A stretch of DNA of 34,775 nt from Gemmatimonadota bacterium (GTDB taxonomy: Bacteria > Gemmatimonadota > Gemmatimonadetes > Palauibacterales > KS3-K002), in the NCBI GenBank assembly GCA_039589155.1, contig JBDHHX010000001.1, positions 1 through 34,775 on the forward strand, written 5' to 3'. Made by a program: the position numbers and the translations under genes. Positions 5,873-29,626 of this stretch are shown here, piece by piece; positions within the stretch are counted from its first letter, which is position 1, and the number at the start of each line of letters is the position of its first letter. The notes under the pieces are model-generated. The model had not been told where the DNA came from and did no database searches. It was given only the letters and a program-made list of their open reading frames with translations.

Positions 5873-8158
5873 CTAGAGCTCGATCAGCACCTGCGTGCCA
5901 ATGGTCGACTCGACCCTAACCATACCATCGACGCTGACCTTGAATCGCTCGCCTTCGATCCCGATGTCGATCTTGTGGCCGCGGAAGGGCAGTCCCGTGA
6001 GCCGCAGCGACTCGAGCTCGAAGGGGAACGGGTCGACGACGAACGCGTCACCGCCGGCGGCCCGGAAGCCGGCGACGTAGCTCACGAGCAGGTCGTTCAC
6101 CCACGAGTGTTGATAGTCATCGAAGCCGCGGTACTGGCAGGGCTGACCTGTATCGGGGTTGTAGTGCTCGTAGCAGTTCGGTCGTGACGGGTCGCCGTCG
6201 TGGAACATCATGCGGACGAATTTGCGAACGAACTCCACGGTGCGCTCGCGCAGGCCCGGGTCGTGCTCGATCGCGCTCCGGGCGATCGCCTCGATCACGT
6301 GCGAGTTCGCCATCGGCCAGACGCGGCCGTTCCACGGGCAGTTGTGGCGCTTGCCCTTCCACTCGGCGTCGGGGCTGTAGTACGGATCGTCGGCGCTGGT
6401 CGAGGGCACCGGGTAGACGGTCCAGAACTCCGACGGGTTGAGCAGGTGTCCCCGCAGACCTTCGACCTGGTCGGGGCCGGCGAGGTCGGTGAAGAAGGGA
6501 TAGAAGCAGACCGCGGCCTTCACGCCGGTGCGCTGCATGGTCCGCGGATCGACATCGGAGAACATGCCCGACTCCGCATCCCACATCAGCCCGCTGATCG
6601 CGGAGCCGGTTCGATCGGCGGCGGCCGTCCACCGTGCGGCATCGGCCTCCGCGCCCGTGCTGGCCGCGATCTCGGCCAGCGCCCGCTGCAGGCGATAGGC
6701 ATAGACCGTGGCGTCCACGCCCTTCAGCCGGATCAGGTTGCCCCACGACTCGCTGTCCGCCTTGGGACTCACCGCCATGTAGCGGCTCATGTACTCCTGG
6801 CCGGTCTCGTAGTGATCGACTACATCGTAGAGCCCGCTGTCTTCTCGATCTCGCTCCCCGTCCAGCCACTCGGCGTAGCGCGTGAGCGGCTCGTACGCAG
6901 CCTTGAGGAAATCGAGATCGGGATGCACACAGTCGACGGCGAGAACGGCGTCGCCCCAGTTCGCGAAATAGAAGTCGGTACGCGCCAGGTGGTTCACGTA
7001 GATGCGTCCGTGCAGCTTCCCGCCTTCCTTCTGGTGCGCCAGGATGTTGAGCAGCGTACCGCGAGCGCGGGCCGGGTCGGAAAGCCAGCGTAGCTCACGA
7101 GCGTGGCACTGCGCGCTGTAGGCGATGGGCACGTGGAAGTAGCCCGTCCCCTCGCAGCAGCCGGGATAAAGATGATTGCCGGCCCCGCCTTCATGACCGC
7201 AGAGTTGAAGACCGTACCAGCGGTAGTACCAATAGCGCTCGAAGAAGACGTCGGAACAGGCGAAGCCCGGGACGCCCTGGAAGTACTCGTTCCAATGTGC
7301 GCGGCTCGCCATACCCGGCTCCGACCCGGGCGTCGGCCGCGCGATCTCCCGGCGGCCCGGCGGCGGCACGTGTTTCTGAATGTGATAGGCAGCGGCTTCC
7401 GTCGCTTGCGAGTCGCCCAGTCCTGTGGGCCGCACTTGCGCTCGCAGGCACAGCGTCGCGTCGCCGCCGGCCGGCACAGTCACCGGCGACGCGACCGCCA
7501 CGTAGAGCACGCCCCGGGGACTTACACCGGCCACCTGCACAGATGTGACCGGGCCGCGTCGCCACTTCTCCGGAAACGGTGTGTGCTCCCAAACCGGGCC
7601 GGCGATGGTGCCCTCCGACAGAAACGCGCTACCAGCCACACCGCCGTCCGGCGCTTCCAAGCTCACCTCCACGTTCAAGCGGTGGACGTGTCGGTCCTGG
7701 AGCATGTGATTGAAGCTCACCGTGCCTGCCGCCGCCTGCACGCTGGAAAGCTCGAGACCCGCGGTGCTTTGTGCGGTCCACGCCACACCCAGCAGCTTGC
7801 GAGCGGAGCCGCCGGCGTTGCGGATCCTCCACTCCGACATGAAATAGCCACCGGGCAACACGGAGCGGTGTTCGTCCGCCGACAGATCGTCATCCAGCGC
7901 GTAGGTCGTGACCAGCTCCGCCGGCGTCCAGCGCCTGCCGGTGGGCCGAGCGGCCAGCGGTTGACCGGGCGGGTCACCGTCCTCGCCCAGCAGCGTGACG
8001 GTGAAGATGGGGGCGAGCTCGTAGTGATAGACGTGCGCTTCGTCCCAGAAGCCGGGCGAATCGAGCCAGCGTGGGTAGCGGGGCGCCCAGATGATGCCGC
8101 CCCCCGAGCCCAGGTAGTACTTGTCGGATCGCTCGAGCAGCCGTAGCGGATCGGTCAT
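5873..8158 (-). CDS. Six-hairpin (alpha/alpha)6 glycoside hydrolase, GH63/GH37/MGH1-like
   Basis: The segment ...DHYETGQEYMS...CFYPFFTDLA...CPWNGRVWPMANSHVIEAI...CYEHYNPDTGQ... resembles trehalase/mannosylglycerate-hydrolase-type catalytic domains. The start MTDPLRLL at 8158 overlaps the upstream stop (ATGA). The remaining 206 codons of the 967-aa track ORF overlap the CBM9-like gene in another frame. Confidence 0.65.
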   Translation of the reverse strand: MTDPLRLLERSDKYYLGSGGGIIWAPRYPRWLDSPGFWDEAHVYHYELAPIFTVTLLGEDGDPPGQPLAARPTGRRWTPAELVTTYALDDDLSADEHRSVLPGGYFMSEWRIRNAGGSARKLLGVAWTAQSTAGLELSSVQAAAGTVSFNHMLQDRHVHRLNVEVSLEAPDGGVAGSAFLSEGTIAGPVWEHTPFPEKWRRGPVTSVQVAGVSPRGVLYVAVASPVTVPAGGDATLCLRAQVRPTGLGDSQATEAAAYHIQKHVPPPGRREIARPTPGSEPGMASRAHWNEYFQGVPGFACSDVFFERYWYYRWYGLQLCGHEGGAGNHLYPGCCEGTGYFHVPIAYSAQCHARELRWLSDPARARGTLLNILAHQKEGGKLHGRIYVNHLARTDFYFANWGDAVLAVDCVHPDLDFLKAAYEPLTRYAEWLDGERDREDSGLYDVVDHYETGQEYMSRYMAVSPKADSESWGNLIRLKGVDATVYAYRLQRALAEIAASTGAEADAARWTAAADRTGSAISGLMWDAESGMFSDVDPRTMQRTGVKAAVCFYPFFTDLAGPDQVEGLRGHLLNPSEFWTVYPVPSTSADDPYYSPDAEWKGKRHNCPWNGRVWPMANSHVIEAIARSAIEHDPGLRERTVEFVRKFVRMMFHDGDPSRPNCYEHYNPDTGQPCQYRGFDDYQHSWVNDLLVSYVAGFRAAGGDAFVVDPFPFELESLRLTGLPFRGHKIDIGIEGERFKVSVDGMVRVESTIGTQVLIEL

Positions 8159-8925
8159 CTCAGCGGCGCCCCCGTCAGGACCAGCCGGCCCATCTTCCAC
8201 AACTCCCAACTCAGGCCAGCGTCGGAGCTGTAGCTCCAACGGTCGCTCCACATGATCTCGGTCAGCCGGCCGCCGCCATCGCCGTCGCTCACGAAAATTT
8301 GCAGGCCGAAGACGGCGCCGACGAACGGCCTCGCTTCCGGCAGCTCGGCCCAGGGGACCCGCATTTCGAACGTCCAGCCGCCTTCGACTGCTTCCGAGGC
8401 CAGGGCACCGCCCTCGATCGGGCCGTGGTAGTCGCTCCCCAGTCGCATCACCGGGAACGGCGACTCCCCGTCGCCGACGATGTGGGCGTAGACCCACTGG
8501 TCGTCGGGTTGCCAGCTGGAGGCGTCGGGCGCACGACCGTCGTAGCTGAGCGGATTGTTGTCGTTGTGGAAATCGAAGACCAGGTTGATTCGGTCGCTGG
8601 TCCAGGCCGCGCCAGCCGCCAGCGAATCGTCGGCGAAGCGACCTGCTACATATATATAGAGCGTGTCCCAAACGAACTGGATCGCGCCGCCGATGTCCGC
8701 TCTGCCGGAATAGAGCGCCGCCTCGGTCAACAAGAAGCTGCTCGAGTCCAGGCTCACCGCCGGAACGTCCTCCCACTCGGCCAGGTCACCGTCGATCACC
8801 AGCTCGAGAGTGCGGGCCGGTGCCACGGCGACCGCCAGGCTCTCGAGCGCCGGTCTCGCGACCGTCGAACCCAGGAAGAGGAGAACCGCGCCTATGACCA
8901 GCGCCCTCCCTTTGACTCTGCTCAT
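8155..8925 (-). CDS. Secreted CBM9/DOMON-like carbohydrate-binding protein
   Basis: From the ATG at 8925 the protein begins MSRVKGRALVIGAVLLFLGSTVA (signal peptide). It continues ...LVIDGDLAEWEDVPAV...GGWTFEMRVPWAELP...FGLQIFVSDGD, which is typical of family-9 CBM-like folds. Confidence 0.55.
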   Translation of the reverse strand: MSRVKGRALVIGAVLLFLGSTVARPALESLAVAVAPARTLELVIDGDLAEWEDVPAVSLDSSSFLLTEAALYSGRADIGGAIQFVWDTLYIYVAGRFADDSLAAGAAWTSDRINLVFDFHNDNNPLSYDGRAPDASSWQPDDQWVYAHIVGDGESPFPVMRLGSDYHGPIEGGALASEAVEGGWTFEMRVPWAELPEARPFVGAVFGLQIFVSDGDGGGRLTEIMWSDRWSYSSDAGLSWELWKMGRLVLTGAPLR

Positions 8926-8942
8926 GCCCTCTTGTCCGGCGT

Positions 8943-10934
8943 TCACTCTACTTGCAGCACGATCACACGTCGCTCGAAGTTGCCCTCCAGACCGACCACA
9001 TAGATGCGGTGCATGCCCGGCGGCGCGCTGAAGTTGACCTTGTAGACTCCGGAATCGCCATCTCGCTCGGTCATCATCACAACGTGGGGCCCGACGACGA
9101 CGGCGATGGCCAGGTTCGCGCCCTTCACGACTCGGCCCATCCGGTCGCGGACCCGGGCTTCCAGCGTGATCGCGGCATCGGCCGCGCCGCCGATACGCGT
9201 CGGCACCTCGATCCAGCCGCGCGGCTCGACGAAGATGGGGATTGCCCGCTCCAGGACTTCCGTACCAGAGTCTGCGGCCAACTCGGCCCGAACGCGAATC
9301 GTGTCGAGCCCCGGGGCCAGCTCTTCGTCGAGGGCCACGCTGTATCGCCCGTCCGCCAGCTCTTCCAAAGCGACCTCGCGCTCCGCCACCGTCGCCGTCA
9401 CACGGGCGCCGCTGACGCCGCGGTCCTGAGCGATGCGGACCGTCAGGTCGAACGGGGTACCGAGCCCGGCGACGATCTGGCCGGCCGCCGCGATCGACCA
9501 AGGATAGCGGCGCTCGAGCTCCACGGAACGAGAGACGAAGACGATCCCCGGCGCCTCCGCCTCGAGAGCGATGCGCCGCGCACCCGTCTCCTGCTCCACC
9601 AAGCGCGCCACGAAGTAGCCAGGCTCTCGCTCCTCGAACTCTAGCCCGGAAAGGCTGGCGCCCTCGACCCGCGGGCCGTTACCGCCCAGCCGGGCCTCGC
9701 GAAGCTCCACCACCAGCGCCTCGTCGCCGCCTTCCGTCTCTCCCGCGTAAGTCACGACCCGAGCCGGCGCCATCACGTCGCCCATGCCCAGCGGCACGAT
9801 CTCAGCCGTCGCCCCACCCAGCGTGACCTCGACGCGGTCCGCAGCTCCGGGCAGACCCAACCAGCCCGCCAGGTAGTTGCCTTCGAAAAGAACGCCGCCA
9901 TCGAAATCGGTGTGCTGGTAGGTTCTCCGTTCAAGGGTCGCCTGCCCACCGCCCGCCACGTCGGCGGCGGCCGTCCGCGCGCCGCGGCTGAATGCCGGGA
10001 GATAGACGTCATCATTGGCCCGGCTCAGGAAGATGCGATCGTAGAGCGGGCGCGGACCGCGCTCCGACGAGGCCGCCGCCGTCCGACCGTACTCCAATTT
10101 CATCCAGTCATCACGTGGCGTGCGTTGTAGCATCCAGGCATAGTAGATCAGCTGCATCGCCCACGGGTACGTCGCCCGGTTGGCCAACTCGCGCTCGGCG
10201 TAGACCAGCATTTCGTCATCATCATACTGAGGCCGGAAGGCGCCTGGCCGCTCCGCCAGCAGCGTCTCCATGTTGCGGCTCATCTCATCCGAGTTCAGGA
10301 ACGCATCCGGCATGCCGCTCATCGAGAACATATCGTCGATGTTATGGAGCACTTCGTGGATCATGATCTGCGAGATGCGGCCCGCGTCCCAGGCGAAGAC
10401 GCCGATCGAGTTGTAGCCCGCATCGGTCAGGAAATTGCCGTCGGGACCCACGGCGCCGCCGCCGTAAGCCAGCGCCGCGCCCTCGGCGTTGGCGTTGTTC
10501 CAGGCGTAGAGCGCGATGACTTCGTCGAACTCGTAGTCCAACATTCCAAGCGCGGCTAACTCGTCCGCGATGTCCTCCCGCGCCAGGTAGTACCGGCCCG
10601 GCGCGACTTCCGACACCTCGGCGAGCGCCAACTGACGATCGATCTGCAAGAGCGAGATGCGGAAGTCCACCGCGCCGCCCGCGGCCGTCCTGTAGAAATC
10701 GACGAACTCCAGCACCTCCTCGTGCACCCGCTCGACCTGTTCCCGGGTGAGCGCTTGCGAAAACGAGTGGGTGAACAGCACGATGAGAACGTCCAGCCGC
10801 CTGGCATCGCCATCTGCCATCGGCTGCTGTGCGAGGAGCGGCGCAAAACTCGATGCCAGGAAGCCTGCGATGCAGGCGCTGGCCAGCGCGGCGCGGGTGA
10901 AGCGGGCGGGTAGCGAAAGCTGAAGGCTGTCCAT
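8943..10934 (-). CDS. Secreted protein with an HExxH motif (putative metallopeptidase-like domain) and C-terminal Ig-like repeats
   Basis: Signal-like N-terminus MDSLQLSLPARFTRAALASACIAGFLASSFAPLLAQ. The only catalytic-type motif seen is IMIHEVLHNIDD. The C-terminal ~300 aa looks like repeated beta-sandwich modules. GTG at 10967 is an alternative start. Confidence 0.5.
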   Translation of the reverse strand: MDSLQLSLPARFTRAALASACIAGFLASSFAPLLAQQPMADGDARRLDVLIVLFTHSFSQALTREQVERVHEEVLEFVDFYRTAAGGAVDFRISLLQIDRQLALAEVSEVAPGRYYLAREDIADELAALGMLDYEFDEVIALYAWNNANAEGAALAYGGGAVGPDGNFLTDAGYNSIGVFAWDAGRISQIMIHEVLHNIDDMFSMSGMPDAFLNSDEMSRNMETLLAERPGAFRPQYDDDEMLVYAERELANRATYPWAMQLIYYAWMLQRTPRDDWMKLEYGRTAAASSERGPRPLYDRIFLSRANDDVYLPAFSRGARTAAADVAGGGQATLERRTYQHTDFDGGVLFEGNYLAGWLGLPGAADRVEVTLGGATAEIVPLGMGDVMAPARVVTYAGETEGGDEALVVELREARLGGNGPRVEGASLSGLEFEEREPGYFVARLVEQETGARRIALEAEAPGIVFVSRSVELERRYPWSIAAAGQIVAGLGTPFDLTVRIAQDRGVSGARVTATVAEREVALEELADGRYSVALDEELAPGLDTIRVRAELAADSGTEVLERAIPIFVEPRGWIEVPTRIGGAADAAITLEARVRDRMGRVVKGANLAIAVVVGPHVVMMTERDGDSGVYKVNFSAPPGMHRIYVVGLEGNFERRVIVLQVE

Positions 10935-11001
10935 ATAACAGGCTTGAGAGAGGGCGGCGCGAACCACTAACCGTTGTCGAGACTAGACGGACGTCCCAGC
11001 G

Positions 11002-12192
11002 ATGTCAACGATAGACCCCACGGAGAGGCGCACGCCGGCCGAAGCCGCGGTCGAAGCATTCCGGGTCGCCTTCTCTGCCAGGCCGGAGTGGAGCTGCCGG
11101 GCGCCCGGTCGGGTTAACCTGATGGGCGGACACGTGGACTACAACGACGGCCTGGTGCTGCCTGCCGCCATCGAATTGGAGATCGGCCTCGCCTTTCGTC
11201 CGCGCTCCGACCGCATAGTCCGCGTGCACTCGGTTGATTTCGATGACTCGGCCGAATTCGACATCGGCGACTTAGCGCCCGGCTCCGTCGAGGGGTGGGC
11301 CGCCTATCCGGCCGGCGTCGCCTGGGCCATGTCGCGGGCCGGCCTTGAGTTGATCGGCATCGATGCGGCCGTTTCCGGGTCCATCCCGGTCGGCGGCGGC
11401 CTTTCTTCATCGGCGGCGCTCGAGATCTGCTTCGCCGCCGCCTACCGACAGGCCGCCGGGCTGGAGACACCGAACCTGAAGCTGGCGAAGCTGAGCCAGG
11501 CGGCGGAAAACCGGTTCGTCGGCGTCCGCTGCGGAATCATGGACCAGGTCGCTTCCGCTTGCGCCGAGATCGGCCACGCCATCCTGATGGACTGCCGCAG
11601 CCTCGAGCTGACTCCGGTCCCCCTGCCAGCAACGCTGAGCATCGTGATCGTGGACAGCGGCGTTAAGCGGGAGCTGAGCGACTCCCAGTACAACGCGCGC
11701 CGCAGCGAGTGCGAGGAAGCCGTTCGCCTGCTCGGTGCCGTTGACGACGACGTCGCCGCTTTGCGCGACGTATCGCCGGAACAGTTGGGCCAGTTGATGC
11801 GCCACCTTCCCGCACCACTCGACCGCCGTGCACACCATGTCGTCGGTGAGATCGAGCGCGTACGGCTCGCCGCCGCGGCGCTCGTGCACGACGAGATCGA
11901 GCGATTCGGCGAGCTGCTCTTCGCCTCGCACCGTTCTCTCAAGGACGACTATGAAGTCAGCTGCGACGAACTAGACAGCCTGGTCGAACTGGCGCGGCAG
12001 GCGCCCGGCGTCATCGGCGCACGCCTCACCGGCGCCGGGTTCGGCGGTTGCACGGTGAACGTGGTGAGCGCCGCGCTAGCCGACGACTTTGTTGAATACG
12101 TGCAGGAAGGCTACGTGAAGCTTCACGGCCGCAAGCCGAGAACCTGGACCAGCGACCCGGCCGCCGGCGTCAGCGTCGACCCGCTCTGGTAG
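11002..12192 (+). CDS. galK: Galactokinase
   Basis: Carries the galactokinase signature GRVNLMGGHVDYNDG and the GHMP kinase motif PVGGGLSSSAALE. The length of 396 aa fits. Confidence 0.9.
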   Translation: MSTIDPTERRTPAEAAVEAFRVAFSARPEWSCRAPGRVNLMGGHVDYNDGLVLPAAIELEIGLAFRPRSDRIVRVHSVDFDDSAEFDIGDLAPGSVEGWAAYPAGVAWAMSRAGLELIGIDAAVSGSIPVGGGLSSSAALEICFAAAYRQAAGLETPNLKLAKLSQAAENRFVGVRCGIMDQVASACAEIGHAILMDCRSLELTPVPLPATLSIVIVDSGVKRELSDSQYNARRSECEEAVRLLGAVDDDVAALRDVSPEQLGQLMRHLPAPLDRRAHHVVGEIERVRLAAAALVHDEIERFGELLFASHRSLKDDYEVSCDELDSLVELARQAPGVIGARLTGAGFGGCTVNVVSAALADDFVEYVQEGYVKLHGRKPRTWTSDPAAGVSVDPLW

Positions 12193-12251
12193 GGCAGGGG
12201 GAACCCCGAAGGCGATTCCCGCATTTCTAGGGCTAAACGGGCCCTGCGCTC

Positions 12252-13352
12252 ATGCTGGCCACCTGCCAGCCCACGCTTTACCTTGCAAACTCAATGTCCG
12301 TGCACGATTTCCCCAGCCGTTTCCGTCAGGCGGTCGGCGCCGGCACCGCCCTCGTCGAGGCACCCGGTACCGGCGACAGCCTGATGACTTTCGCCCGCTC
12401 GGTCGCTGCGGGCCTCTCCGATGAGCCCAAGTGGCTGCATTGCCGGTTCCTCTACGACGCCGAAGGCAGCCGCTTGTTCGAGGTAATCACCGAACAGCCC
12501 GAGTACTATCCGACACGCACCGAAGCGGCGATCCTGCAGGCGCACGCCGAGGAGATCCGCGATTTGACCGGACCCGTCACCCTGGCCGAGCTGGGCTCGG
12601 GTTACTCAGTCAAGACCGAGTACCTGCTGAACGCCTACTCCAGCCACGACAGGGACGTGCTCTACGTTCCGGTGGACGTCAGCGTCAGCGCGCTGCGCGA
12701 GGCGAACCGCGCCATATCGGACAACTTCCCGGAAGTCCAGTTCACCGGTATCGCCGGCCCCTACCGCAGCGCGTTTCCCGTTCTGCGCCAGCTCTCGCCG
12801 CAGATGGTCGTTTTCCTGGGTAGCACGATCGGCAACTTCAATCCGGCGGAGACGACGGCATTCTTCAGCGCGCTCTCCGGACACTTGCCGGAGCACGACT
12901 TCTTCCTGCTGGGCATCGACCTGGTGAAGGACATCGATGTCCTGGAGGCGGCCTACAATGACGCGGCAGGGATCACCGCCCGCTTCACGACGAACTACTT
13001 CGCGCGGCTAAACCGCGAGCTGGGTTCCGACGTTGACCTGGACAACATCGAGCATGTCGCGCGCTGGAACCCCGAGCTGGAGCGGATGGAGATCTTCACG
13101 CTCTTTCATACGACCCAGCAGGTGTACATCGAGCCGCTCGACATGACCTTCGAGATCGAGGCCGGCGAGCGCGTCCTCATCGAGATCAGCCGCAAGTTCC
13201 GCCTGCCCGACATCACCAGAGAGCTCGGCAAGTACGGGTTCCGCTTGCGTCGATCCTTCACCGACCCAAAGGGTTGGTTCGGACTGCTGTTGTTGGAACG
13301 CGTCGATGACAGGGTGTTGCGGCGCGCGTCCTACCCCGCGACCGACCGCTAG
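12252..13352 (+). CDS. egtD: L-histidine N-alpha-methyltransferase (EgtD family; makes hercynine)
   Basis: Contains FLYDAEGSRLFEVITEQPEYYPTRTEAAIL, ELGSGYSVKT, FLGSTIGNF and AYNDAAGITARFTTN, which are the characteristic EgtD blocks. ATG at 12294 is an alternative start. Confidence 0.85.
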   Translation: MLATCQPTLYLANSMSVHDFPSRFRQAVGAGTALVEAPGTGDSLMTFARSVAAGLSDEPKWLHCRFLYDAEGSRLFEVITEQPEYYPTRTEAAILQAHAEEIRDLTGPVTLAELGSGYSVKTEYLLNAYSSHDRDVLYVPVDVSVSALREANRAISDNFPEVQFTGIAGPYRSAFPVLRQLSPQMVVFLGSTIGNFNPAETTAFFSALSGHLPEHDFFLLGIDLVKDIDVLEAAYNDAAGITARFTTNYFARLNRELGSDVDLDNIEHVARWNPELERMEIFTLFHTTQQVYIEPLDMTFEIEAGERVLIEISRKFRLPDITRELGKYGFRLRRSFTDPKGWFGLLLLERVDDRVLRRASYPATDR

Positions 13353-13355
13353 GCG

Positions 13356-16300
13356 ATGCACGAAGTGACCCTGAGCGGTCGCGCCGCGGCCGAAGCCAAT
13401 ACGCTCATCGAAAGAGACGGACTCTGCGGGATCTGCCCGGCAGGTTGCTGGGTGACCGTCGCATTGGAGGACGGCTCGATCAAGAGCGTACGCCCCCAGG
13501 ACGACCCGATGGGGATGATCTGCACCAACGGCGTCCACTCGGCGGAGATCGTCCACGACCCGGACCGGCTGCGCTATCCGATGCGCCGCAGCGGACCGAA
13601 GGGCACACACGAGTTCGAGCGTATCAGCTGGGACGAGGCGTTCGATATCATCGTCGAAAAGCTGCAGGGCTTGAAAGAGGAGCACGGGCCGGAGTCGACG
13701 GCGATATACACCGGCCGCGGCAGCTTCGAGCTGGCGCTCTGCGACGTCTTCCAACCGGACGGCGTCGCCATCTCGTCCGCTTCATCCGTTCTCTTTCCGT
13801 TCGGCTCGCCGAACACACTGGGCGTCGGCGCGCTCTGCTACGTCTCCTTCGCCATGATCGCGCCGCACTCGACGCTCGGTGAGTACTACCACACGATGGA
13901 CCACGACATCGAGAACGCCGAGCTCATCGTGGTCTGGGGCGCCAACCCGGCGACCGACTCGCCGCCGCTCGCACACGAGCAGATCAAGCGCGCCGTGCTG
14001 AGGGGAGCCGAGGTCATCTGTATCGACCCGCAGCGAAACCACACGGCCCGCGAGGTCGGCGCCGAGTGGATACCCGTCCGCCCCGGGACCGATGGCGCAC
14101 TGGCCCTCGGCATGATCAACGTGCTGATCGAGGAAGAGCTGTACGACGAAGCGTTCGTCAAAGACTGGACGCTTGGGTTCGACGAGCTGGCCCAGTACGT
14201 CCAGCACTTCCGGCCGGAGGTCGTCGAGGACATCACCGGCGTGCCGGCCGAAACGGTGGTCAACCTGGCACGTCGTCTCGCCCGCGCGCGCGGCGCCTGC
14301 CCCGTCATGTATACCGGGCTCGAGTACTCGGACAGCGGCGTACAGGCAATCCGCGCCGTCTTTACGCTTTGGGCGCTGGCGGGTCAGCTCGACGTGCCCG
14401 GCGGCCTCAACATCCGCATGCGGGAAAACCAGTTTCCGATCAACCGGTCCGGCCTGGTCGCGAACCCGAATCCGAAGAAGGCCCTGGGCCGCGATCGATT
14501 CCCGGTCTACAGCCTGTACCGGGGCGAATCGCACGCCATAGCGCTCCCCGACTCCGTGCTCAAAGGCGAGCCGTACAAGGTCCGTGGGCTCATCATCCTC
14601 GGTGGTTCCATCATTACCGCCTGGCCAAACCCATCGGTTTGGCGCGAAACGCTGGGCGCCCTCGATTTCATGGTCAGCATCAACCGGCATCACACCGCCG
14701 ACTCGGCCTACGCCGACATCGTGTTGCCGGCGACCACCATGTACGAGATCACCTCGTACATGACCTACGGCCCGATCTTCAAGATCAGGGAGAAGATGCT
14801 GGAGCCGGTGGGTGAAGCGCGCAACGATTTCCTCATCCTGGCGGAACTGGCCAGTCGCCTCGGCTACGGCCACCTCTATCCACAGACCGAGGAGGCGCTG
14901 CTGCGCCGCGTCCTCCACGGCTCAGGCTTCACACTCGAGGACGTGATCACCGCCGGCGGCGCGGTTCAAGTTCCCACCGTGATGACGCAGTACAAGAAGT
15001 GGGAGAAGGGCGGCCTGCGCGAAGACGGGGAGCCCGGGTTCAGCACTCCGTCAGGGAAGTTCGAGATCGCTTCCAGCATCCTGGAAGAACACGGCTACGA
15101 TGCGCTCCCCGTTTACACCGAGCCCGGCGAGGGTCCGCTGGCGCAACCGGCGCTGGCCGAGAGTTACCCGCTGGTCTTCAACTCGGGCGCCCGCATCTTC
15201 GCCGACTTTAGATCCCAGCACCACGGCGTTGTCGGACTCAATCGCAAAGCGCGCGTACCGCTGGTGACGATGAACACGAGCGATGCCGCACAACGCGGAA
15301 TAGAAGACGGCGATTGGGCTTGGGTCGCTACGCCACGCGGCCGGGTGAAGTACCGTGCGCGCGTGACCGATGACATTGCCGCCGGCGCCATAGACGCCAA
15401 CATGGGCGGCGGCGGTCCGCTGGGCCCGCAAGAGTGGCAAGACTGCAACGTGAACGACCTGACCGATCTGAACCGTTACGACCCGATCTCCGGCTTCCCG
15501 GTCTACAAGGCGCTGCTCTGCGATGTGGTGAAGGCGGAGGACTCGAACGGCGCAGGTCGCCGGACCGAAGAAGAAAGCGAAGCCGTGATCCGGGCGAGCG
15601 AGATCGAAAAGCCAATGCGCTACGTCTACCTGGATCACAACGCGACCACGCCGGTGGACCCCGAAGTGCTGGATGCTATTATGCCGCACTTGCAGGCCGC
15701 TTACGGCAACCCGTCAAGCATCCACAGCCGCGGAAGCGAGGCGCGCGATGCGGTAGAGTCGGCGCGCCGCACGGTCGCCCAGGCTCTGGGCTGCACGGCA
15801 CGCCGAGTCATCTTCACCGGCGGCGGCTCGGAGTCCGACAACCTGGCCATCAAGGGCGTGGCGCTGGCCAGGCGCTACCAGGGCAACCATATCATCACCA
15901 CCACGGTCGAGCACCCGGCGGTGCTGAGAACCTGCGAGGCGCTGCAGGAGTTCGGCTTCGAGATCACTTACCTGGATGTCGATGAGACCGGCTGCGTCGA
16001 TTCACAGGCATTGAAGGACGCGATGCGCCCGCAGACGACACTGGTCAGCGTGATGATGGCAAACAGCGAGGTGGGGAGCATCAATCCCATCGCCGAGCTG
16101 GCGGGCATCGCACGCGAGGGCGGCGCCCTGTTCCATACCGATGCAGTCCAGGGGCTGGGCAAACTGCCCATCGACGTGGACGAGCTGGGCGTCGACCTGT
16201 TGTCGGTCTCCAGCCACAAGCTCTACGGACCGAAGGGTGTCGGTGCTCTCTACGCGCGCAAAGGCATCAAGCTCCACCCCGTGATCCACGGCGGCGGCCA

Positions 16301-16781
16301 GGAGCGGAAGCTGCGGGCCGGCACCGAGAACGTCCCCGGTATCGTCGGTTTCGGGAAAGCCTGCGAGCTGGCCGTGCGGCGACTCAACCACAACGAGATG
16401 GACCGCGTGCTCCAGCTACGCGACCGCTTGGAGGCGGGAATAAGGGAGATCGTTCCCGAGGCCCGACTCAACGGCCACCCCGAGCATCGGCTCCCCAACA
16501 CGCTCAACATGACGCTGCCCGGCATGCGCGGCGAGTCGCTGGTCCTGTTCATGGACCGCCGCGGCGTCTACTTCTCTTCCGGCTCCGCCTGCAAGTCGGG
16601 GAATCCCGACCCGTCCCACGTGCTAACAGCGATGGGGCTCTCGGACGATGATGCCCACTGCGCTATCCGGCTCACGCTGGGCGTGGGAACCACAGAAGAA
16701 GACGTGGACTACGTGCTGGAAAGCCTGCGACAGATCATCGGCGACCGCGGTAGCAGCGTCCGTTTCGTAGCCTGCCGCTAG
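13356..16781 (+). CDS. Fusion of a molybdopterin/tungstopterin oxidoreductase (acetylene-hydratase-like MopB) with a NifS-type cysteine desulfurase: metallopterin-dependent ergothioneine synthase (MES)-like
   Basis: N-terminal Fe-S motif C24-G-I-C27-P-A-G-C31...C56, followed by MopB-like blocks over aa ~1-745. From M754 onward the sequence is a class-V aminotransferase: YLDHNATTPVDPEV..., PLP lysine SSHK955LYGPKG, and catalytic SSGSAC1079KSG. It starts 3 nt after the egtD stop. Confidence 0.8.
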   Translation: MHEVTLSGRAAAEANTLIERDGLCGICPAGCWVTVALEDGSIKSVRPQDDPMGMICTNGVHSAEIVHDPDRLRYPMRRSGPKGTHEFERISWDEAFDIIVEKLQGLKEEHGPESTAIYTGRGSFELALCDVFQPDGVAISSASSVLFPFGSPNTLGVGALCYVSFAMIAPHSTLGEYYHTMDHDIENAELIVVWGANPATDSPPLAHEQIKRAVLRGAEVICIDPQRNHTAREVGAEWIPVRPGTDGALALGMINVLIEEELYDEAFVKDWTLGFDELAQYVQHFRPEVVEDITGVPAETVVNLARRLARARGACPVMYTGLEYSDSGVQAIRAVFTLWALAGQLDVPGGLNIRMRENQFPINRSGLVANPNPKKALGRDRFPVYSLYRGESHAIALPDSVLKGEPYKVRGLIILGGSIITAWPNPSVWRETLGALDFMVSINRHHTADSAYADIVLPATTMYEITSYMTYGPIFKIREKMLEPVGEARNDFLILAELASRLGYGHLYPQTEEALLRRVLHGSGFTLEDVITAGGAVQVPTVMTQYKKWEKGGLREDGEPGFSTPSGKFEIASSILEEHGYDALPVYTEPGEGPLAQPALAESYPLVFNSGARIFADFRSQHHGVVGLNRKARVPLVTMNTSDAAQRGIEDGDWAWVATPRGRVKYRARVTDDIAAGAIDANMGGGGPLGPQEWQDCNVNDLTDLNRYDPISGFPVYKALLCDVVKAEDSNGAGRRTEEESEAVIRASEIEKPMRYVYLDHNATTPVDPEVLDAIMPHLQAAYGNPSSIHSRGSEARDAVESARRTVAQALGCTARRVIFTGGGSESDNLAIKGVALARRYQGNHIITTTVEHPAVLRTCEALQEFGFEITYLDVDETGCVDSQALKDAMRPQTTLVSVMMANSEVGSINPIAELAGIAREGGALFHTDAVQGLGKLPIDVDELGVDLLSVSSHKLYGPKGVGALYARKGIKLHPVIHGGGQERKLRAGTENVPGIVGFGKACELAVRRLNHNEMDRVLQLRDRLEAGIREIVPEARLNGHPEHRLPNTLNMTLPGMRGESLVLFMDRRGVYFSSGSACKSGNPDPSHVLTAMGLSDDDAHCAIRLTLGVGTTEEDVDYVLESLRQIIGDRGSSVRFVACR

Positions 16782-16792
16782 CCGGTGACCGG

Positions 16793-18652
16793 TTACCGAT
16801 TACCGGACATTGCTTCGAAGACCTCGAGGGAGAAATCCACTTTGCCGAACGGCGCACTAACCTGCACGCCCTGCACGTGTGGCTCGAGCTGCGCCACCAT
16901 CTCACGAGCTATCAATAGACCCTCCGCCATGCCGGCTTCCTTGCCCACGTCACTGGCGACGCGCATGCGCTCGAGCACGTGGTCGGGTACCTCGACGCCT
17001 GGCACTTCGTTGTTCATGAACTCGGCGTTGCGGTAAGAGACCAACGGCCAGATCGCGGCGACGACCGGGATGCGCACGTGATCGATGCGCTCCAGGAATC
17101 CCAAGAACTTCTCCACGTCGAAGATCGGCTGCGTTATCGCGTACTGCGCGCCGGCATCCACCTTCCACTCGAAATGGTGGATCTCGTAGTCGGGATCGAT
17201 CGAGGCATGATTCACGCCCACGCCGTGGTAGAAGGCGGTGGGCGCTCCGATGGGGTTGTCGCCTGGATCGAGACCTTCGTTCATCTTACGCACCAGGTTG
17301 GTGAGACCCACCGAGTCGATGTCGAAGACCGCCGTGGCTTCGGGATACGGACCCATACGCGGCGGATCGCCCGTGATGATCAGCAGGTTGCGCAGGCCCA
17401 GCGCGTGTGCGCCCAGAAGGTCGCTCATCATGCCCAGCAGGTTACGATCGCGGCAGCAGTAGTGCGGTATCGTCTCGATGCCGACCTCTCGCTCGATGAT
17501 GGCGCAGCTGGCCAGTACACCCATCCGCATCATCGCGCGCGGCCCGTCGGGCACGTTTACCGCATCGACGCCGGCTTCCTTGAGCTTGCGCACTTTCTCG
17601 ATGACGTCGTCCGGCTCGCCGCCCTTTGGCGGCAAGATCTCCACGCTGGTCACCGGGATGCCCGCAACGATCTTGGCCGCAAGCTGCGATCGCTGGGCCA
17701 CAGGAACCTGCTTGACGGCCGTAGTCGCCCTGCTCTCGGCCTCGCGCACCGTCTCGGCCACTACCGTGCGCCGCCGCGGCCGCAGCGCGCGCACCTGGCT
17801 GGCCATAGCGGCGATGTGCTCCGGCGTCGTACCGCAGCAGCCGCCGACGAAGCGGACGCCAGCCTGGATCAGCCGGCGCGTATACTTGGAGAAGTACTCC
17901 GGCGAGGCCATGTACATCTTGCGGCCTTCGATCTCCCGGGGCAGGCCGGCGTTCGCCATGGCCGAGAGCGGCCGGCTGGTGACCTCCGCCATTATCTGGA
18001 TCGCCTTCAGGATCATCGCTGGGCCGACGCTGCAGTTGAGCCCGATCACATCGGCGCCGAGTGCGTCCAGGTCTCGTCCGATTCGCGCTGGGTCGACGCC
18101 ATAAACCGTCTCGCCGCCGACTTGAACGGTCATTTGGGCGACGATCGGCAAATCCGCCGCCTCGCGGCAACCGAGGATCGCCTGCTCGATCTCCGACAGG
18201 TCGCTGAACGTCTCCACGATGAAGAGATCGGCACCGCCGTCGGCCAGCGCTTCCGCCTGCTCGCGGAAGAACTCACGCGCTTCCTCCCGCCCGGTCGGCC
18301 CGTACGGCTCGATACGAATGCCCAGCGGTCCGATAGAGCCCGCCACGTATAGATCATCGCCGGCGACCTCGCGTGCCAACTCGGCCGCCCTTCTGTTGAT
18401 CTCGTGAACCCGATTGCCGAGCCCGTGCTGGTCGAGCCGTACCCGGTTGCCGCCGAAGCTGTTGGTCTCGAGGATCTCCGCTCCCGCCTCCTTGTAGGCG
18501 CGGTGCACTTCGCGGACCAGCTCCGGTCGCTTAAGGTTCACCTCGTCGTAGCTGACGTTGATGAACACGCCGCGCCGGTACAGTTCGGTGCCGAGCGCGC
18601 CGTCGAAGAGGTGCGCGCTGCCGTCGTCGATCAGCGCTCGGAAATCTGGCAT
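16793..18652 (-). CDS. yitJ: Bifunctional homocysteine S-methyltransferase / 5,10-methylenetetrahydrofolate reductase (YitJ type)
   Basis: The N-terminus has an Hcy-binding domain (LFDGALGTELYRRG...GLNCSVGP...GGCCGTTPEHI) and the C-terminus has a MetF domain (VEILPPKGG...HYCCRDRN...ITGDPP...). The ATG at 18652 (MPDFRAL) is preceded by GAGAGGA. The track start at 18676 is a TTG inside the terminator U-tract. Confidence 0.85.
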   Translation of the reverse strand: MPDFRALIDDGSAHLFDGALGTELYRRGVFINVSYDEVNLKRPELVREVHRAYKEAGAEILETNSFGGNRVRLDQHGLGNRVHEINRRAAELAREVAGDDLYVAGSIGPLGIRIEPYGPTGREEAREFFREQAEALADGGADLFIVETFSDLSEIEQAILGCREAADLPIVAQMTVQVGGETVYGVDPARIGRDLDALGADVIGLNCSVGPAMILKAIQIMAEVTSRPLSAMANAGLPREIEGRKMYMASPEYFSKYTRRLIQAGVRFVGGCCGTTPEHIAAMASQVRALRPRRRTVVAETVREAESRATTAVKQVPVAQRSQLAAKIVAGIPVTSVEILPPKGGEPDDVIEKVRKLKEAGVDAVNVPDGPRAMMRMGVLASCAIIEREVGIETIPHYCCRDRNLLGMMSDLLGAHALGLRNLLIITGDPPRMGPYPEATAVFDIDSVGLTNLVRKMNEGLDPGDNPIGAPTAFYHGVGVNHASIDPDYEIHHFEWKVDAGAQYAITQPIFDVEKFLGFLERIDHVRIPVVAAIWPLVSYRNAEFMNNEVPGVEVPDHVLERMRVASDVGKEAGMAEGLLIAREMVAQLEPHVQGVQVSAPFGKVDFSLEVFEAMSGNR

Positions 18653-18668
18653 GGCAATGATCCTCTCT

Positions 18669-18710
18669 ACAAACAAACGCGACCCGGCTTCGCTTCGAGT
18701 CGGGTCGCGT
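18669..18710 (-). terminator. Intrinsic terminator in the yitJ leader (expression platform)
   Basis: The minus strand reads ACGCGACCCG-actcgaagcgaagc-CGGGTCGCGT, a perfect 10-bp stem, followed by TTTGTTTGT. It ends 17 nt before the ATG. Confidence 0.55.
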
Positions 18711-21825: not shown

Positions 21826-23085
21826 CTATTGCCGTCTGAAGATCAACGTCGCGTTGATCCCGCCGAACCCGAAAGAATTGGACATCGCGAAGCCGACACC
21901 GGCCGCGCGACCTCCGCCTGACACGTAGTCGAGATCGCACTCGGGATCCGGCTCGGACAAGTTCAGCGTCGGCGGCATCCAGCCACGCTCGATGGTGAGC
22001 GCGGTGATCGCCGCCTCGATCGCACCGGAAGCGCCGAGCGGATGGCCGTAGTATCCCTTCGTGCCGCTGACCGGCACGCGATAAGCACGCTCTCCCAACA
22101 CAGCTTTGATAGCCTTCGTTTCCACTGGATCGTTGAGCCGTGTGGATGAGGCGTGCGCGTTCACATACTCCACTTCATCGGGCACGGCCGCCGCGTCGGC
22201 GAGCGCGATCTCTATGGCCCGGGCCGACTGTACGCCATCAGGCCGGGGCGCCGTCATATGGTAGCCGTCGTTGGTCGTGCCGTACCCACACAGCTCGGCA
22301 TAGATGCGCGCATCACGCTTCACCGCGCGACCCCATTCTTCCAGTACCAGTATCGCCGCGCCTTCACCCATGACGAAGCCATCGCGCTCGCGATCGAACG
22401 GCCGGCTCGCGGTGGCCGGATCATCGTTGCGCTTCGACATGGCGCGGATCAACGCGAACGCTCCGTAGGACAGCGGCGACAGCGGGCACTCGACGCCGCC
22501 CGCCAGGGCGACGTCGGCGCCGCCGTCACGAATCATCTGGAAGCCGTTGCCGATGCCCATCGCTCCCGACGCACAGCTCATCCCGTTGGTTGAGTTGGGA
22601 CCGGTGAACCCGAACTCGATCGCGATGTTGCAGCTCGTCGCACCACCAAATACGGCCAGGGCGAGCAGCGGGTTGACGGCCGCGGGGCCTTGCTCGAGGA
22701 AAACGTTGTGCTGGCTTTCGGCATAGGCGACGCCGCCCAGCGCCGAGCCCATCTGCACGGCGACGCGGTCGGACTCGAGTGACGCCGGGTCGAGGGCGGC
22801 GTCGCTCAGCGCCATGCGCGCCGTGGCCACGCTGAAGTGGCCGAAGCGATCGAGGCGCTTCGCTCGCTTGCCGTCCATGTGATCGATAGGGTCGAAGCCG
22901 TCGACCTCGGCCGCCATGCGACTGCGGAAATGGTTCACATCGAAGCGGGTGACCTCGCGGACCATCGAGCGCTCGCGTCGCAGACCGTCCCAAAGCCCCT
23001 CTGCGCCGCTGCCGATTGGCGTGATGCAGCCGATTCCGGTGACGGCGACGCGACGGCGGCCGTTGTGCTCCCTGTCATTGCTCAC
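21826..23085 (-). CDS. Beta-ketoacyl synthase (KAS I/II, FabF-like), stand-alone
   Basis: From the GTG at 23085 the protein begins VSNDREHNGRRRVAVTGIGCITPIG... The Cys-His-His triad contexts are GMSCASGAMGIG, VNAHASST and GYYGHPLGASG. The start overlaps the upstream stop (GTGA). Confidence 0.85.
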   Translation of the reverse strand: MSNDREHNGRRRVAVTGIGCITPIGSGAEGLWDGLRRERSMVREVTRFDVNHFRSRMAAEVDGFDPIDHMDGKRAKRLDRFGHFSVATARMALSDAALDPASLESDRVAVQMGSALGGVAYAESQHNVFLEQGPAAVNPLLALAVFGGATSCNIAIEFGFTGPNSTNGMSCASGAMGIGNGFQMIRDGGADVALAGGVECPLSPLSYGAFALIRAMSKRNDDPATASRPFDRERDGFVMGEGAAILVLEEWGRAVKRDARIYAELCGYGTTNDGYHMTAPRPDGVQSARAIEIALADAAAVPDEVEYVNAHASSTRLNDPVETKAIKAVLGERAYRVPVSGTKGYYGHPLGASGAIEAAITALTIERGWMPPTLNLSEPDPECDLDYVSGGGRAAGVGFAMSNSFGFGGINATLIFRRQ

Positions 23086-23543
23086 AAGAGCTCTACCTCT
23101 TTCTTGACTCCAGCCAGCGTCATGCCGGCGACATGATGGATGAAGGTCGGGCCGATGACCGCGTTTGCCGCGAACCTGCCGATGAGCGGCCAGCGCGGAC
23201 CGCGCGGCCAGTCGTGAATTATCTCGACTCGCGTGGCATCGCCCTCCCGGTGGAACCGCCACTCCACGTCCATCCCCTTCATGATTCCCGCCACGTGCCG
23301 GTATCGCACCACCGGCACGCTTTCGTCCGCCCACATCTCGCTGGCCCACCAGACCGGGTAGCCGACCGGACCGAACATTCGCCGGGCCGCCATCTCCACC
23401 AGCCCGCGGCCGAATCCGTCGCGCCGCTGGAACTGCACATAGCGGTAGTGCTCCAGTATCTCGGGCCAACGCTCCACGTCGGCGGCGACCTGAAAACAGC
23501 GCGCCGGAGACGAATCGATCGCGATCTCGTTGTGCGTGATCAT
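23082..23543 (-). CDS. SRPBCC-superfamily protein (polyketide cyclase/dehydrase / START-Coq10-like fold)
   Basis: MITHNEIAIDSSPARCFQVAADVERWPEILEHYRYV... is a typical SRPBCC N-terminal block, and the length is ~153 aa. It has an ATGA overlap with the upstream gene and a GTGA overlap with the downstream gene. Confidence 0.7.
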   Translation of the reverse strand: MITHNEIAIDSSPARCFQVAADVERWPEILEHYRYVQFQRRDGFGRGLVEMAARRMFGPVGYPVWWASEMWADESVPVVRYRHVAGIMKGMDVEWRFHREGDATRVEIIHDWPRGPRWPLIGRFAANAVIGPTFIHHVAGMTLAGVKKEVELL

Positions 23544-24778: not shown

Positions 24779-25491
24779 CGCAATCCCCAGCGAAACAGCG
24801 GTTGAGGCTCCACCACCGCATCCAGTCCGACACGCTCGGCCAGACCCCGCGCCTCCTTCAGCGTGAACGCGGCACGCAACGACGCCGGGGCATCGTGCCG
24901 CGTGTAGCGATGCCGGCCCCATACGGTGAGGGCAAGGCACAGCGACGCCAGGTACCCGGCGGTTCCACGACGCAGATCACTCACCACAACTCCCAGTTCG
25001 CTCACCCTGGACATCTCTCGCAACGCCTCAACCGCGTCTTCTGTTTCCAGGTGGTGCAGAAACGTGCTGCAAATCGCCACGTCGAAGGCTCGCTCTCCGA
25101 AGGGCAGCGACCTGGCGTCACCCCGGACAAGTCGAACCCGCGCGCCACGGTCACCCCCTTCCAGTCGCCGCTTCGCTATGCGGATCGTCTCCCGGCCTAG
25201 CTCGAGTCCCACGCCCTCCAACTCCACATCGCGACCCTCGCTCCAGCGTCCCAACGCCGCCAGCATGTCGCCGCCCCCGCAGCCCACGTCCAGGATCCGC
25301 AGCCGGCTGGGTATGACGCCGCCCAACAACCGCTCCACCTGATGGATCACCGTCGCCGTCGCTCCCAGCGAGCGGTTGTACCAGGCGAGATCGTTCAGAC
25401 TCTCGGCCAGCCGATCGGGGTCCGGTGAACCCTGATCCATCAGTTCGCGCACCAGCTGTCTTTGCATTGGACCCCAACGATGCCGCCACAC
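24763..25491 (-). CDS. Class I SAM-dependent methyltransferase
   Basis: Motif I is RILDVGCGGGDMLAAL. Position 25491 is a GTG start preceded by GAAGG, and the ATG at 25467 is an alternative. There is a 16-nt overlap with the downstream FAD enzyme gene. Confidence 0.8.
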   Translation of the reverse strand: MWRHRWGPMQRQLVRELMDQGSPDPDRLAESLNDLAWYNRSLGATATVIHQVERLLGGVIPSRLRILDVGCGGGDMLAALGRWSEGRDVELEGVGLELGRETIRIAKRRLEGGDRGARVRLVRGDARSLPFGERAFDVAICSTFLHHLETEDAVEALREMSRVSELGVVVSDLRRGTAGYLASLCLALTVWGRHRYTRHDAPASLRAAFTLKEARGLAERVGLDAVVEPQPLFRWGLRWKRP

Positions 25492-29620: not shown

Positions 29621-29626
29621 GCGCCG

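Follow-up and report, generated by a model that had tools for sequence, protein, structure and literature searches.

Can ergothioneine be made by two adjacent genes and without molecular oxygen? The question is raised by a 34,775-nucleotide stretch of DNA from a Gemmatimonadota bacterium (hereafter the window), in which an egtD gene is followed by a gene that joins a metallopterin enzyme to a cysteine desulfurase in one reading frame. From the sequence comparisons described below, we consider it very probable that the pair is self-sufficient for making ergothioneine without O2, by a pathway of the MES type (metallopterin-dependent ergothioneine synthase), a class described in 2022 by Beliaeva and Seebeck (PMC9516567). 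An earlier note on this DNA had proposed such a pathway, and its individual claims are taken up where the corresponding results are given.

Gene layout and the histidine methyltransferase

All features described here lie on the + strand. The egtD gene (12252..13352) starts with ATG and encodes a protein of 366 aa, a predicted SAM-dependent L-histidine N-alpha-trimethyltransferase whose product would be hercynine (trimethylhistidine, TMH). The fusion gene (13356..16781, including the stop codon) also starts with ATG and encodes 1141 aa. The junction between the two reads TAG (13350-13352)-GCG-ATG (13356), and both the ORF list and this sequence agree with the earlier statement that egtD stops 3 nt upstream of the 1141-aa ORF, the spacer being exactly 3 nt. 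Such close spacing suggests co-transcription and possibly translational coupling. A scan of 10800-17200 for promoters and terminators found nothing exceeding shuffle expectation, and no Rfam family, Moco and SAM riboswitches included, was matched anywhere in the window at the gathering threshold.

The EgtD protein matches Pfam PF10017 (histidine-specific methyltransferase) with an E-value of 1e-99 and scores 315.1 bits against the NCBIfam egtD equivalog TIGR03438, above the curated cut-off of 290.9. The structures of Mycolicibacterium smegmatis EgtD (PDB 4uy7 and 4pim) are matched at 248-253 bits across the entire domain, so that the assignment to the EgtD family of histidine trimethylases, originally made from the sequence letters, is upheld by family models and structures alike. 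In the HMMER alignment to 4uy7, PEYYPTRTE, FLGSTIGN, AYxDAAG(V/I)TA and E-x-S-x-KF are retained in the window protein; the motifs PEYYPTR, GSTIGN, AYxDAAGxTA and ExSxKF contact the substrate in the M. smegmatis structure. The window EgtD differs from the M. smegmatis protein in having an N-terminal extension of ~45 aa. It also differs in being paired with MES instead of EgtA/B/C/E. The domain E-values of both window proteins are far beyond chance.

The metallopterin module

The N-terminal module of the fusion protein, aa 1-728 (13356..15539), is predicted to bind a bis-pterin cofactor with Mo or W. It contains the Pfam domains Molybdopterin (aa 71-500, E 1e-43) and Molydop_binding (aa 618-719, E 3e-18), and a weak match to Molybdop_Fe4S4 at aa 23-67 (17 bits versus a cut-off of 22.7). 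By these assignments the module belongs to the DMSO reductase (bis-MGD) superfamily, with cofactor binding predicted. A four-cysteine motif, C24-x2-C27-x3-C31...C56 (13425..13523), is the predicted holder of a [4Fe-4S] cluster. Its residues align to C14/C17/C21/C48 of the Caldithrix abyssi enzyme (CaMES), as well as to the cysteines that hold the cluster in acetylene hydratase, and they are kept in 187-192 of 194 family members. The domains and the motif together substantiate the bis-pterin module with an N-terminal CxxCxxxC...C motif that had been read from the sequence. The predicted protein ligand of the metal is Cys161 (13836..13838), which aligns to CaMES C153 and is kept in 191/194 members. 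Cys161 also aligns to a cysteine within the GSPN...C segment of acetylene hydratase, the W ligand of that enzyme.

The placement of the module was compared among solved structures. A single-sequence search of the PDB placed acetylene hydratase (2e7z) at the top with 221 bits, ahead of polysulfide/thiosulfate reductase (186 bits) and formate dehydrogenases (~175 bits). With a profile built from 14 family sequences, the score of 2e7z rose to 305 bits (E 1e-89), against 252 for polysulfide/thiosulfate reductase and 239 for formate dehydrogenases, with Psr/Phs, FdhH and DMSOR ranking behind acetylene hydratase in that order. The check suggested in the earlier note, whether the module would side with formate and polysulfide reductases, thus comes out in favor of acetylene hydratase with either kind of query.

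Acetylene hydratase from Syntrophotalea (Pelobacter) acetylenica, which carries W-bis-MGD and [4Fe-4S], is therefore the closest solved structure to the module. The two differ directly after the second cluster cysteine, the motif being C-x-x-C-D in acetylene hydratase but C-G-I-C-P in the window protein. The Asp at this position is the catalytic Asp13 of acetylene hydratase. In the MES relatives the position is occupied by an invariant proline (Pro28 in the window protein; 190/190 relatives). Because Pro replaces the catalytic Asp, the window protein is acetylene-hydratase-like in fold but not an acetylene hydratase, and EC 4.2.1.112 was ruled out as its identity. Acetylene hydratase also lacks a desulfurase module and catalyses hydration rather than C-S bond formation. 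It is only a distant homologue of the window MES, and CaMES has been reported to be 27% identical to it (PMC9516567).

The linker and the desulfurase module

A variable linker, aa ~729-754 (15540..15617), connects the two modules. It falls in a poorly conserved segment of the alignment, and the reading frame is unbroken through it. The C-terminal module, aa 755-1141 (15618..16778), is a PLP-dependent cysteine desulfurase of the NifS/IscS type, as judged from Aminotran_5 (aa 757-1120, E 3e-80), the NifS model TIGR03402 (512 bits), the IscS subfamily model NF002806 (330 bits, cut-off 304) and PDB cysteine desulfurases, matched at up to 385 bits. Group I desulfurases such as E. coli IscS (1p3w) and H. 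pylori NifS (5wt2) align with the module from end to end at 308-385 bits and, like it, possess a PLP lysine and a loop with the persulfide cysteine. Lys955 (16218..16220) in the SSHK motif is the predicted PLP Schiff-base lysine, aligned to CaMES K952 and kept in 191/194 members, and Cys1079 (16590..16592) in SGSACKSG is the predicted persulfide-forming cysteine, aligned to CaMES C1074 and kept in 190/194. These motif positions and the Aminotran_5 match agree with the description of a complete NifS-type desulfurase that had been given before.

Two further cysteines follow. Cys1102 (16659..16661), kept in 186/194 members, aligns to CaMES C1097, which is non-essential there. Cys1140 (16773..16775) is the penultimate residue (…VRFVACR); it aligns to CaMES C1135, is kept in 189/194 members, and is proposed to act as a sulfur-relay cysteine on the C-terminal tail. 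Unlike NifS and IscS, the window module is covalently joined behind a metallopterin enzyme and has this extra cysteine at its extreme C-terminus, which is essential in CaMES. The desulfurase of CaMES also differs from NifS/IscS in giving its sulfur only within its own chain, and not to scaffolds such as IscU.

Comparison with CaMES and the published MES class

Four MES enzymes (CaMES, AbMES, EaMES and hvMES) made ergothioneine in E. coli, and desulfurase activity has been demonstrated in orthologues (PMC9516567). In CaMES, C153S abolished activity, K952A was inactive, C1074S lowered the product 2000-fold and C1135S killed activity, C1135 being essential, while mutation of C1097 had only a 2-fold effect (PMC9516567). 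Complementation between MES chains fails, and sulfur transfer is obligatorily intramolecular (PMC9516567).

The exact 1136-aa sequence of CaMES, recovered from a contig of C. abyssi (L045), served for comparison. The window fusion is 64.6% identical to it over aa 12-1141, the N-module alone being 70.5% and the desulfurase 57.7% identical. Identities to AbMES, EaMES and hvMES are at least 64%, 58% and 54%, respectively, and are lower bounds, as these sequences were machine-read from the SI with errors. The nine defining residues of CaMES given in PMC9516567 (C14/C17/C21/C48, C153, K952, C1074, C1097 and C1135) are all kept in the window fusion, the last five as C161, K955, C1079, C1102 and C1140. 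The two proteins are of similar length (1136 and 1141 aa), have an identical order of modules and the same penultimate cysteine, and are both paired with egtD. They differ in linker sequence and host phylum, which is Gemmatimonadota for the window protein; its host lineage, unlike that of CaMES, may be facultatively aerobic. The identity and the nine shared residues bear out the claim of a Caldithrix abyssi-type fusion, and on these alignments the window protein is confidently assigned as an MES orthologue of an already published class. No MES structure was found in the copy of the PDB searched.

It should be mentioned that the novelty of the locus was overstated, because the 2022 paper already established the class, and its Table S1, based on the catalytic residues C153, K952, C1074, C1097 and C1135 (CaMES numbering), includes three homologues from Gemmatimonadetes (PMC9516567). 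The known picture of ergothioneine pathways is left unchanged by this gene pair.

Family conservation, synteny and annotation

A genome scan found at least 517 matching stretches among species-representative genomes. All 80 loci inspected from these carry a fusion, either full-length or cut by a contig end, and the best 120 database matches are likewise fusions, of 975-1173 aa and 66-100% identity to the window MES. Among the matches listed, identities within the family are 62-86% across bacterial phyla and archaea, and the key MES residues are at least 96% conserved among 194 full-length relatives; by sequence, the family is unusually conserved across phyla. MES is little studied as a class, but in sequence databases it forms a large family and is not rare. 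Four extra cysteines of the window protein, C129, C722, C813 and C860, are near-invariant and are candidates for the MES sulfur relay.

Of 71 informative loci, drawn from many phyla and including archaea, 65 have egtD beside the fusion gene, which answers the earlier call to check whether this synteny is conserved in relatives. The pairing is not absolute, since five relatives have the fusion without egtD within at least 1.3 kb on either side. When every ORF lying up to 5 kb from the fusion was clustered for 81 loci in search of a third cross-phylum partner, egtD was the only gene recurring across phyla, the other clusters being antisense shadow ORFs or lineage-specific synteny.

Source databases label MES proteins as 'cysteine desulfurase NifS', 'IscS subfamily' or 'aminotransferase class V', much as the earlier note had predicted of generic annotation. 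NCBIfam holds no model for the fusion as such, only the generic IscS subfamily model being above its cut-off. Because of these labels and the missing fusion model, ergothioneine capacity is probably under-called in genomes that carry the fusion.

Proposed pathway

In the pathway that we propose, EgtD would convert L-histidine to hercynine (TMH) at the expense of three SAM. The PLP module, through Lys955, would then draw sulfur from L-cysteine, leaving alanine and a persulfide on Cys1079. The sulfane sulfur would move within the same polypeptide, via Cys1140 of the tail, to the Mo or W of a bis-pterin cofactor held by Cys161, beside the predicted [4Fe-4S] cluster on C24/C27/C31/C56. The resulting metal-sulfido species could sulfurise C2 of the TMH imidazole to give ergothioneine, and the reduced metal would be re-sulfurised for the following turnover. 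The 3-nt-spaced genes would be co-transcribed and possibly coupled in translation. For the window protein, we infer its catalytic activity, its metal (Mo or W) and the metal-sulfido mechanism by analogy with the characterized orthologues; the mechanism is termed tentative by the authors who described MES (PMC9516567).

The same outcome, sulfurisation of TMH at imidazole C2, is reached by EgtB/Egt1, which are O2- and Fe-dependent sulfoxide synthases, and by the rhodanese-like sulfurtransferase EanB, but their folds and chemistry are unrelated to those of MES. A scan that covered 22 ORFs of the window, each at least 200 aa long, found no homologue of EgtB/Egt1 or EanB, in accordance with the statement that egtB and eanB are missing from the window. 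Genes of cofactor supply (bis-MGD biosynthesis, Mo/W uptake) are also not found in the window.

Host lineage and oxygen

The word 'anaerobic' applied to this pathway refers to its chemistry rather than to the uncultured Gemmatimonadota host. There are no respiratory genes in the window. The FAD-binding ORF at 23540-24940 encodes a protein of the geranylgeranyl-reductase family and was therefore rejected as a possible marker of O2-dependent chemistry.

According to the abstract of the 2022 paper, MES occurs exclusively in anaerobes (PMC9516567). Among the matches listed, the closest named relative is Ca. Kutchimonas denitrificans, whose MES is 81% identical and shares the synteny; over six shared genes, the window lineage and this organism have a mean protein identity of ~73%. 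The order of Ca. Kutchimonas denitrificans, Palauibacterales, has been predicted to be facultatively aerobic (PMC10469786). This prediction, together with the relatedness of the window lineage, qualifies the published statement on exclusively anaerobic hosts. We tentatively suggest that MES is not confined to strict anaerobes and that the window lineage runs it in an O2-respiring cell, a proposal that we regard as possible but somewhat more doubtful than probable. If this is true, MES would have to be oxygen-tolerant or else be used in a regulated way during anoxic phases, and the view that it is a relic, replaced by EgtB in all settings that offer O2, would be weakened.

The same observations could be turned against a working pathway. 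With a closest named relative, among the matches listed, in an order predicted to be facultatively aerobic, and with MES previously reported from anaerobes only, the genes might be intact yet silent or non-functional in this host, for example as a recently transferred relic inactivated by O2. The gene order galK-egtD-MES, however, is found in nine of the Gemmatimonadota loci inspected (L004-L011, L046) and a convergent HMT/MTHFR gene in ten (L001-L009, L012), with protein identities of 64-86% in these loci and 80-86% for MES alone, and every catalytic residue is retained. The recurrent synteny, the identities and the kept residues point to purifying selection and vertical inheritance rather than decay, and we judge a silent pathway to be very unlikely.

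Alternative products and functions

If the two genes do form a working MES pathway, its product could still be a relative of ergothioneine, either selenoneine, with the C-module acting like a selenocysteine lyase, or another thiolated amino-acid betaine. Selenocysteine lyases are kin to NifS/IscS, and the module matches 3a9x and 3gzc in the PDB at ~235 bits and the SclA model NF040779 at 109 bits. This last score stands against 512 and 407 bits for the NifS/IscS models. Similarly, EasF-like enzymes, which act on other substrates, belong to the EgtD family, and their model TIGR03439 gives 166 bits; that score is under its cut-off, while the window EgtD exceeds the cut-off of the histidine-specific equivalog and shares its substrate-binding motifs with M. 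smegmatis EgtD. As orthologues at 54-65% identity made ergothioneine from TMH and cysteine-derived sulfur, a different product is highly improbable.

The sulfuration of molybdenum cofactors by desulfurases is a known theme (PMC9516567), which allows the fusion to be read as a protein of cofactor maturation or Fe-S/Moco sulfuration, like the eukaryotic Moco sulfurase ABA3 or a NifS feeding XdhC or FdhD, with egtD as an unrelated neighbor. An unrelated neighbor does not fit a gene that adjoins the fusion in 65/71 loci and is its sole neighbor conserved across phyla. Rather than a Moco-carrier domain, the N-module is predicted to be a complete catalytic subunit of the DMSO reductase family, equipped with a Cys ligand and an Fe-S cluster of its own, and four orthologues work catalytically; a maturation role is scarcely credible.

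Finally, the apparent metagenomic origin of the window and the poorly conserved linker (aa 729-754) might suggest that a separate molybdopterin oxidoreductase and a NifS gene were joined by faulty assembly or as a pseudogene, an assembly join being among the refutations named in the earlier note. This reading can be dismissed, as the ORF is continuous, neither the essential C-terminal cysteine nor the cluster motif at the N-terminus is damaged, the best 120 database matches are fusions, the 80 inspected loci, from different genomes, have this fused gene too, and the identical 1141-aa protein was assembled on independent contigs from two other JGI metagenome samples, which excludes an assembly join.

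The egtD-fusion gene pair

The 366-aa ORF at 12252..13352 (+) and the 1141-aa fusion ORF at 13356..16781 (+) meet at a TAG-GCG-ATG junction as read from the sequence, so that the fusion gene starts 3 nt past the egtD stop codon, in agreement with the earlier note. The 366-aa protein matches Pfam PF10017 (E 1e-99), passes the NCBIfam egtD equivalog TIGR03438 (315.1 bits, cut-off 290.9) and scores about 250 bits against the crystal structures of M. smegmatis EgtD, with the characteristic motifs kept. Judged by these matches, the protein is EgtD. In the fusion, Molybdop_Fe4S4 (weak), Molybdopterin and Molydop_binding (Pfam) occupy aa 23-719, and a full Aminotran_5 domain lies C-terminal to them at aa 757-1120. 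These domains bear out the claimed order of a metallopterin module followed by a complete desulfurase. The motifs described before were all found, namely C24-x2-C27-x3-C31...C56, Lys955 in SSHK and Cys1079 in SGSACKSG, and the original observation is confirmed without reservation.

The earlier note had allowed for an assembly join or a break near the linker. The reading frame is open across the linker (aa ~729-754, nt 15540-15617), and the identical 1141-aa protein, within the same neighbourhood of galK (galactokinase gene), egtD and fusion, is present on contigs of two other JGI samples. In a 5.8-billion-protein collection, the best 120 matches are fusions (975-1173 aa, 66-100% identity). Each of the 80 loci inspected, taken from different species-representative genomes, has the fused gene as well, complete or truncated only where the contig ends. 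Together, these findings exclude an assembly join as the source of the fusion.

Comparison to CaMES and acetylene hydratase

Metallopterin-dependent ergothioneine synthase (MES) was described in 2022 by Beliaeva and Seebeck, the Caldithrix abyssi enzyme (CaMES) combining, in one fused chain, a metallopterin module resembling acetylene hydratase with a functional cysteine desulfurase (PMC9516567). All four of CaMES, AbMES, EaMES and hvMES gave ergothioneine from trimethylhistidine (TMH, hercynine) in E. coli, production was abolished in CaMES C153S, K952A, C1074S and C1135S, and the sulfur transfer was found to be necessarily intramolecular (PMC9516567).

The authentic 1136-aa CaMES sequence from the C. 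abyssi contig (L045), with numbering in exact agreement with PMC9516567, was used as the reference. Full-length identity between the window fusion and this reference is 64.6%; the metallopterin module is the closer part (70.5%) and the desulfurase the more divergent one (57.7%). The nine CaMES residues compared in this alignment are all kept (CaMES numbers in parentheses): the predicted [4Fe-4S] cluster cysteines C24, C27, C31 and C56 (C14, C17, C21 and C48), the predicted Mo/W ligand C161 (C153), the predicted PLP lysine K955 (K952), the predicted persulfide cysteine C1079 (C1074), the conserved C1102 (C1097, non-essential in CaMES) and the C-terminal C1140 (C1135, essential in CaMES). Each is at least 96% conserved across 194 full-length relatives. 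Near-invariant in the same 194 family members are C129 (13740-13742; 191), C722 (15519-15521; 187), C813 (15792-15794; 187) and C860 (15933-15935; 179). These cysteines lie outside the residue set examined in PMC9516567 and are candidates for sulfur relay or structural roles.

Among solved structures, the closest to the metallopterin module is acetylene hydratase, as the earlier note had proposed over formate and polysulfide reductases. The single sequence scored 221 bits against acetylene hydratase (2e7z), 186 against polysulfide/thiosulfate reductase and about 175 against formate dehydrogenases; the corresponding values for a profile of 14 sequences (12 named lineages, including one archaeon) were 305, 252 and 239 bits. 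Directly behind the second cluster cysteine, acetylene hydratase has an Asp, its catalytic residue, but the MES family has an invariant Pro. With Pro replacing this Asp, the window fusion is rejected as an acetylene hydratase. No MES structure was present in the PDB copy searched with the metallopterin module and the desulfurase.

Far closer to the metallopterin module than acetylene hydratase are the unfused database proteins P0122, P0123, P0127, P0130 and P0131 (715-735 aa), which match the whole module with 38-55% identity. Cluster cysteines and Cys ligand are retained in them, as is the 'LLC(D/E)' motif at the C-terminus. They may represent split MES systems or else different heterocycle sulfurases.

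The assignment of the window pair to the MES class is very probably right, and the sequence reading and interpretation of the earlier note were correct, the fusion being an orthologue of the published class.

Conservation of the gene neighbourhood

Adjacency to egtD was judged in the 71 of 80 fetched loci with enough flank. The pairing, which the earlier note proposed to check in relatives, is seen in 65 of these, with egtD upstream on the same strand in 42 as in the window, downstream on the same strand in 21 and divergent in 2. In one further locus egtD is 2.3 kb away, and in five (L003, L020, L027, L032 and L061) egtD is absent from both flanks out to at least 1.3 kb. L003 is a complete Gemmatimonadota chromosome (CP070812), which has extra DNA also between the fusion gene and the homocysteine-methyltransferase gene described below. 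When neighbouring ORFs were clustered all against all, egtD alone emerged as a partner kept across phyla, which makes the gene pair the functional unit.

The arrangement in which galK and egtD precede the fusion gene occurs in 9 loci, in Gemmatimonadota only. Downstream, and convergent to the fusion gene at 11 nt from its stop codon, is a bifunctional homocysteine S-methyltransferase/methylenetetrahydrofolate reductase gene (16793-18676, -; NF006396, 706 bits, cut-off 453). This convergent neighbour is found in 10 Gemmatimonadota loci (L001-L009, L012) and is absent from other phyla. Its product might help regenerate SAM for EgtD, but lineage synteny explains the neighbour equally well.

Proposed mechanism

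Residue-level roles were demonstrated for CaMES, and its metal-sulfido chemistry is a tentative proposal of the same authors (PMC9516567). Carried over by orthology, EgtD would convert histidine and three SAM to hercynine, and the PLP module would desulfurate cysteine to form a Cys1079 persulfide. Sulfur would then pass to Cys1140 on the C-terminal tail and on to a Mo or W centre coordinated by Cys161. The metal-sulfido species may sulfurise the imidazole C2, after which the reduced metal would be re-sulfurised. The net reaction would be TMH + Cys -> ergothioneine + Ala, with no O2 required. Genes for cofactor biosynthesis and Mo/W uptake were not found among the window ORFs; no riboswitch was detected in an Rfam scan of the whole window, and no promoter or terminator was recognisable in 10800-17200.

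Distribution and host

The MES family is large and abundant in databases. A genome scan gave at least 517 confirmed matching stretches among species-representative genomes, and the 80 inspected loci include the cultured Geomonas paludis and Pelotalea chapellei, the anammox genera Scalindua and Kuenenia and a Methanosarcinales archaeon. Clustering at 50% leaves about one full-length representative (P0121) of the fused family, showing very strong sequence constraint. The fusion proteins are labelled solely NifS, IscS or class-V aminotransferase in source annotation, and no NCBIfam model claims the fusion as a whole; the one model to score above its cut-off is generic, for the IscS subfamily. In the literature searched, MES is treated only in the 2022 paper and in publications that cite it, so the remark that few members have been studied still holds.

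Close homologues that carry a name, like all syntenic loci, come from Gemmatimonadota MAGs (80-86% identity). Since Table S1 of PMC9516567 has three Gemmatimonadetes homologues, the phylum is not new for MES, and the window fusion adds an orthologue to a published class from a phylum where the class had been recorded before. Among named relatives, Ca. Kutchimonas denitrificans, a member of Palauibacterales, is the closest, with 81% MES identity, common synteny and 63-81% identity across six shared proteins. Given complex IV genes in nearly every species, Palauibacterales are described as most likely facultative aerobes (PMC10469786). The restriction to anaerobes repeated in the earlier note is indeed stated in the 2022 paper ("exclusively"); however, it is qualified by the physiology predicted for this relative at the order level. 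Mildly new are the annotation gap, the host physiology, the extra near-invariant cysteines and the unfused metallopterin-module relatives.

Other genes in the window

Upstream of the pair is a carbohydrate-use neighbourhood (1415-4063, 5873-8776, 8155-9501 and 8943-10967, all -; 11002-12192, +) with two large MGH1-like/GH116-like glycoside hydrolases, a CBM9-domain ORF, galactokinase and a 674-aa ORF that lacks a Pfam match and is 62-73% conserved in Gemmatimonadota relatives. A possible cluster for lipid or isoprenoid modification occupies 21826-25491 (-), where the gene for a beta-ketoacyl synthase, extended at its N-terminus by 237 aa, is in a run with those for a flavoprotein of the geranylgeranyl-reductase family and a class I SAM methyltransferase. 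In the phosphofructokinase ORF at 29294-31336 (+), about 325 aa before the PFK domain have no family match, most likely because the ORF was called too long in GC-rich DNA, not because of a real extension. The 330-aa ORF at 25914-26906 (+) matches Pfam SARA_C (Smad anchor for receptor activation-like, C-terminal; E 4e-11), an unexpected family name in a bacterium.
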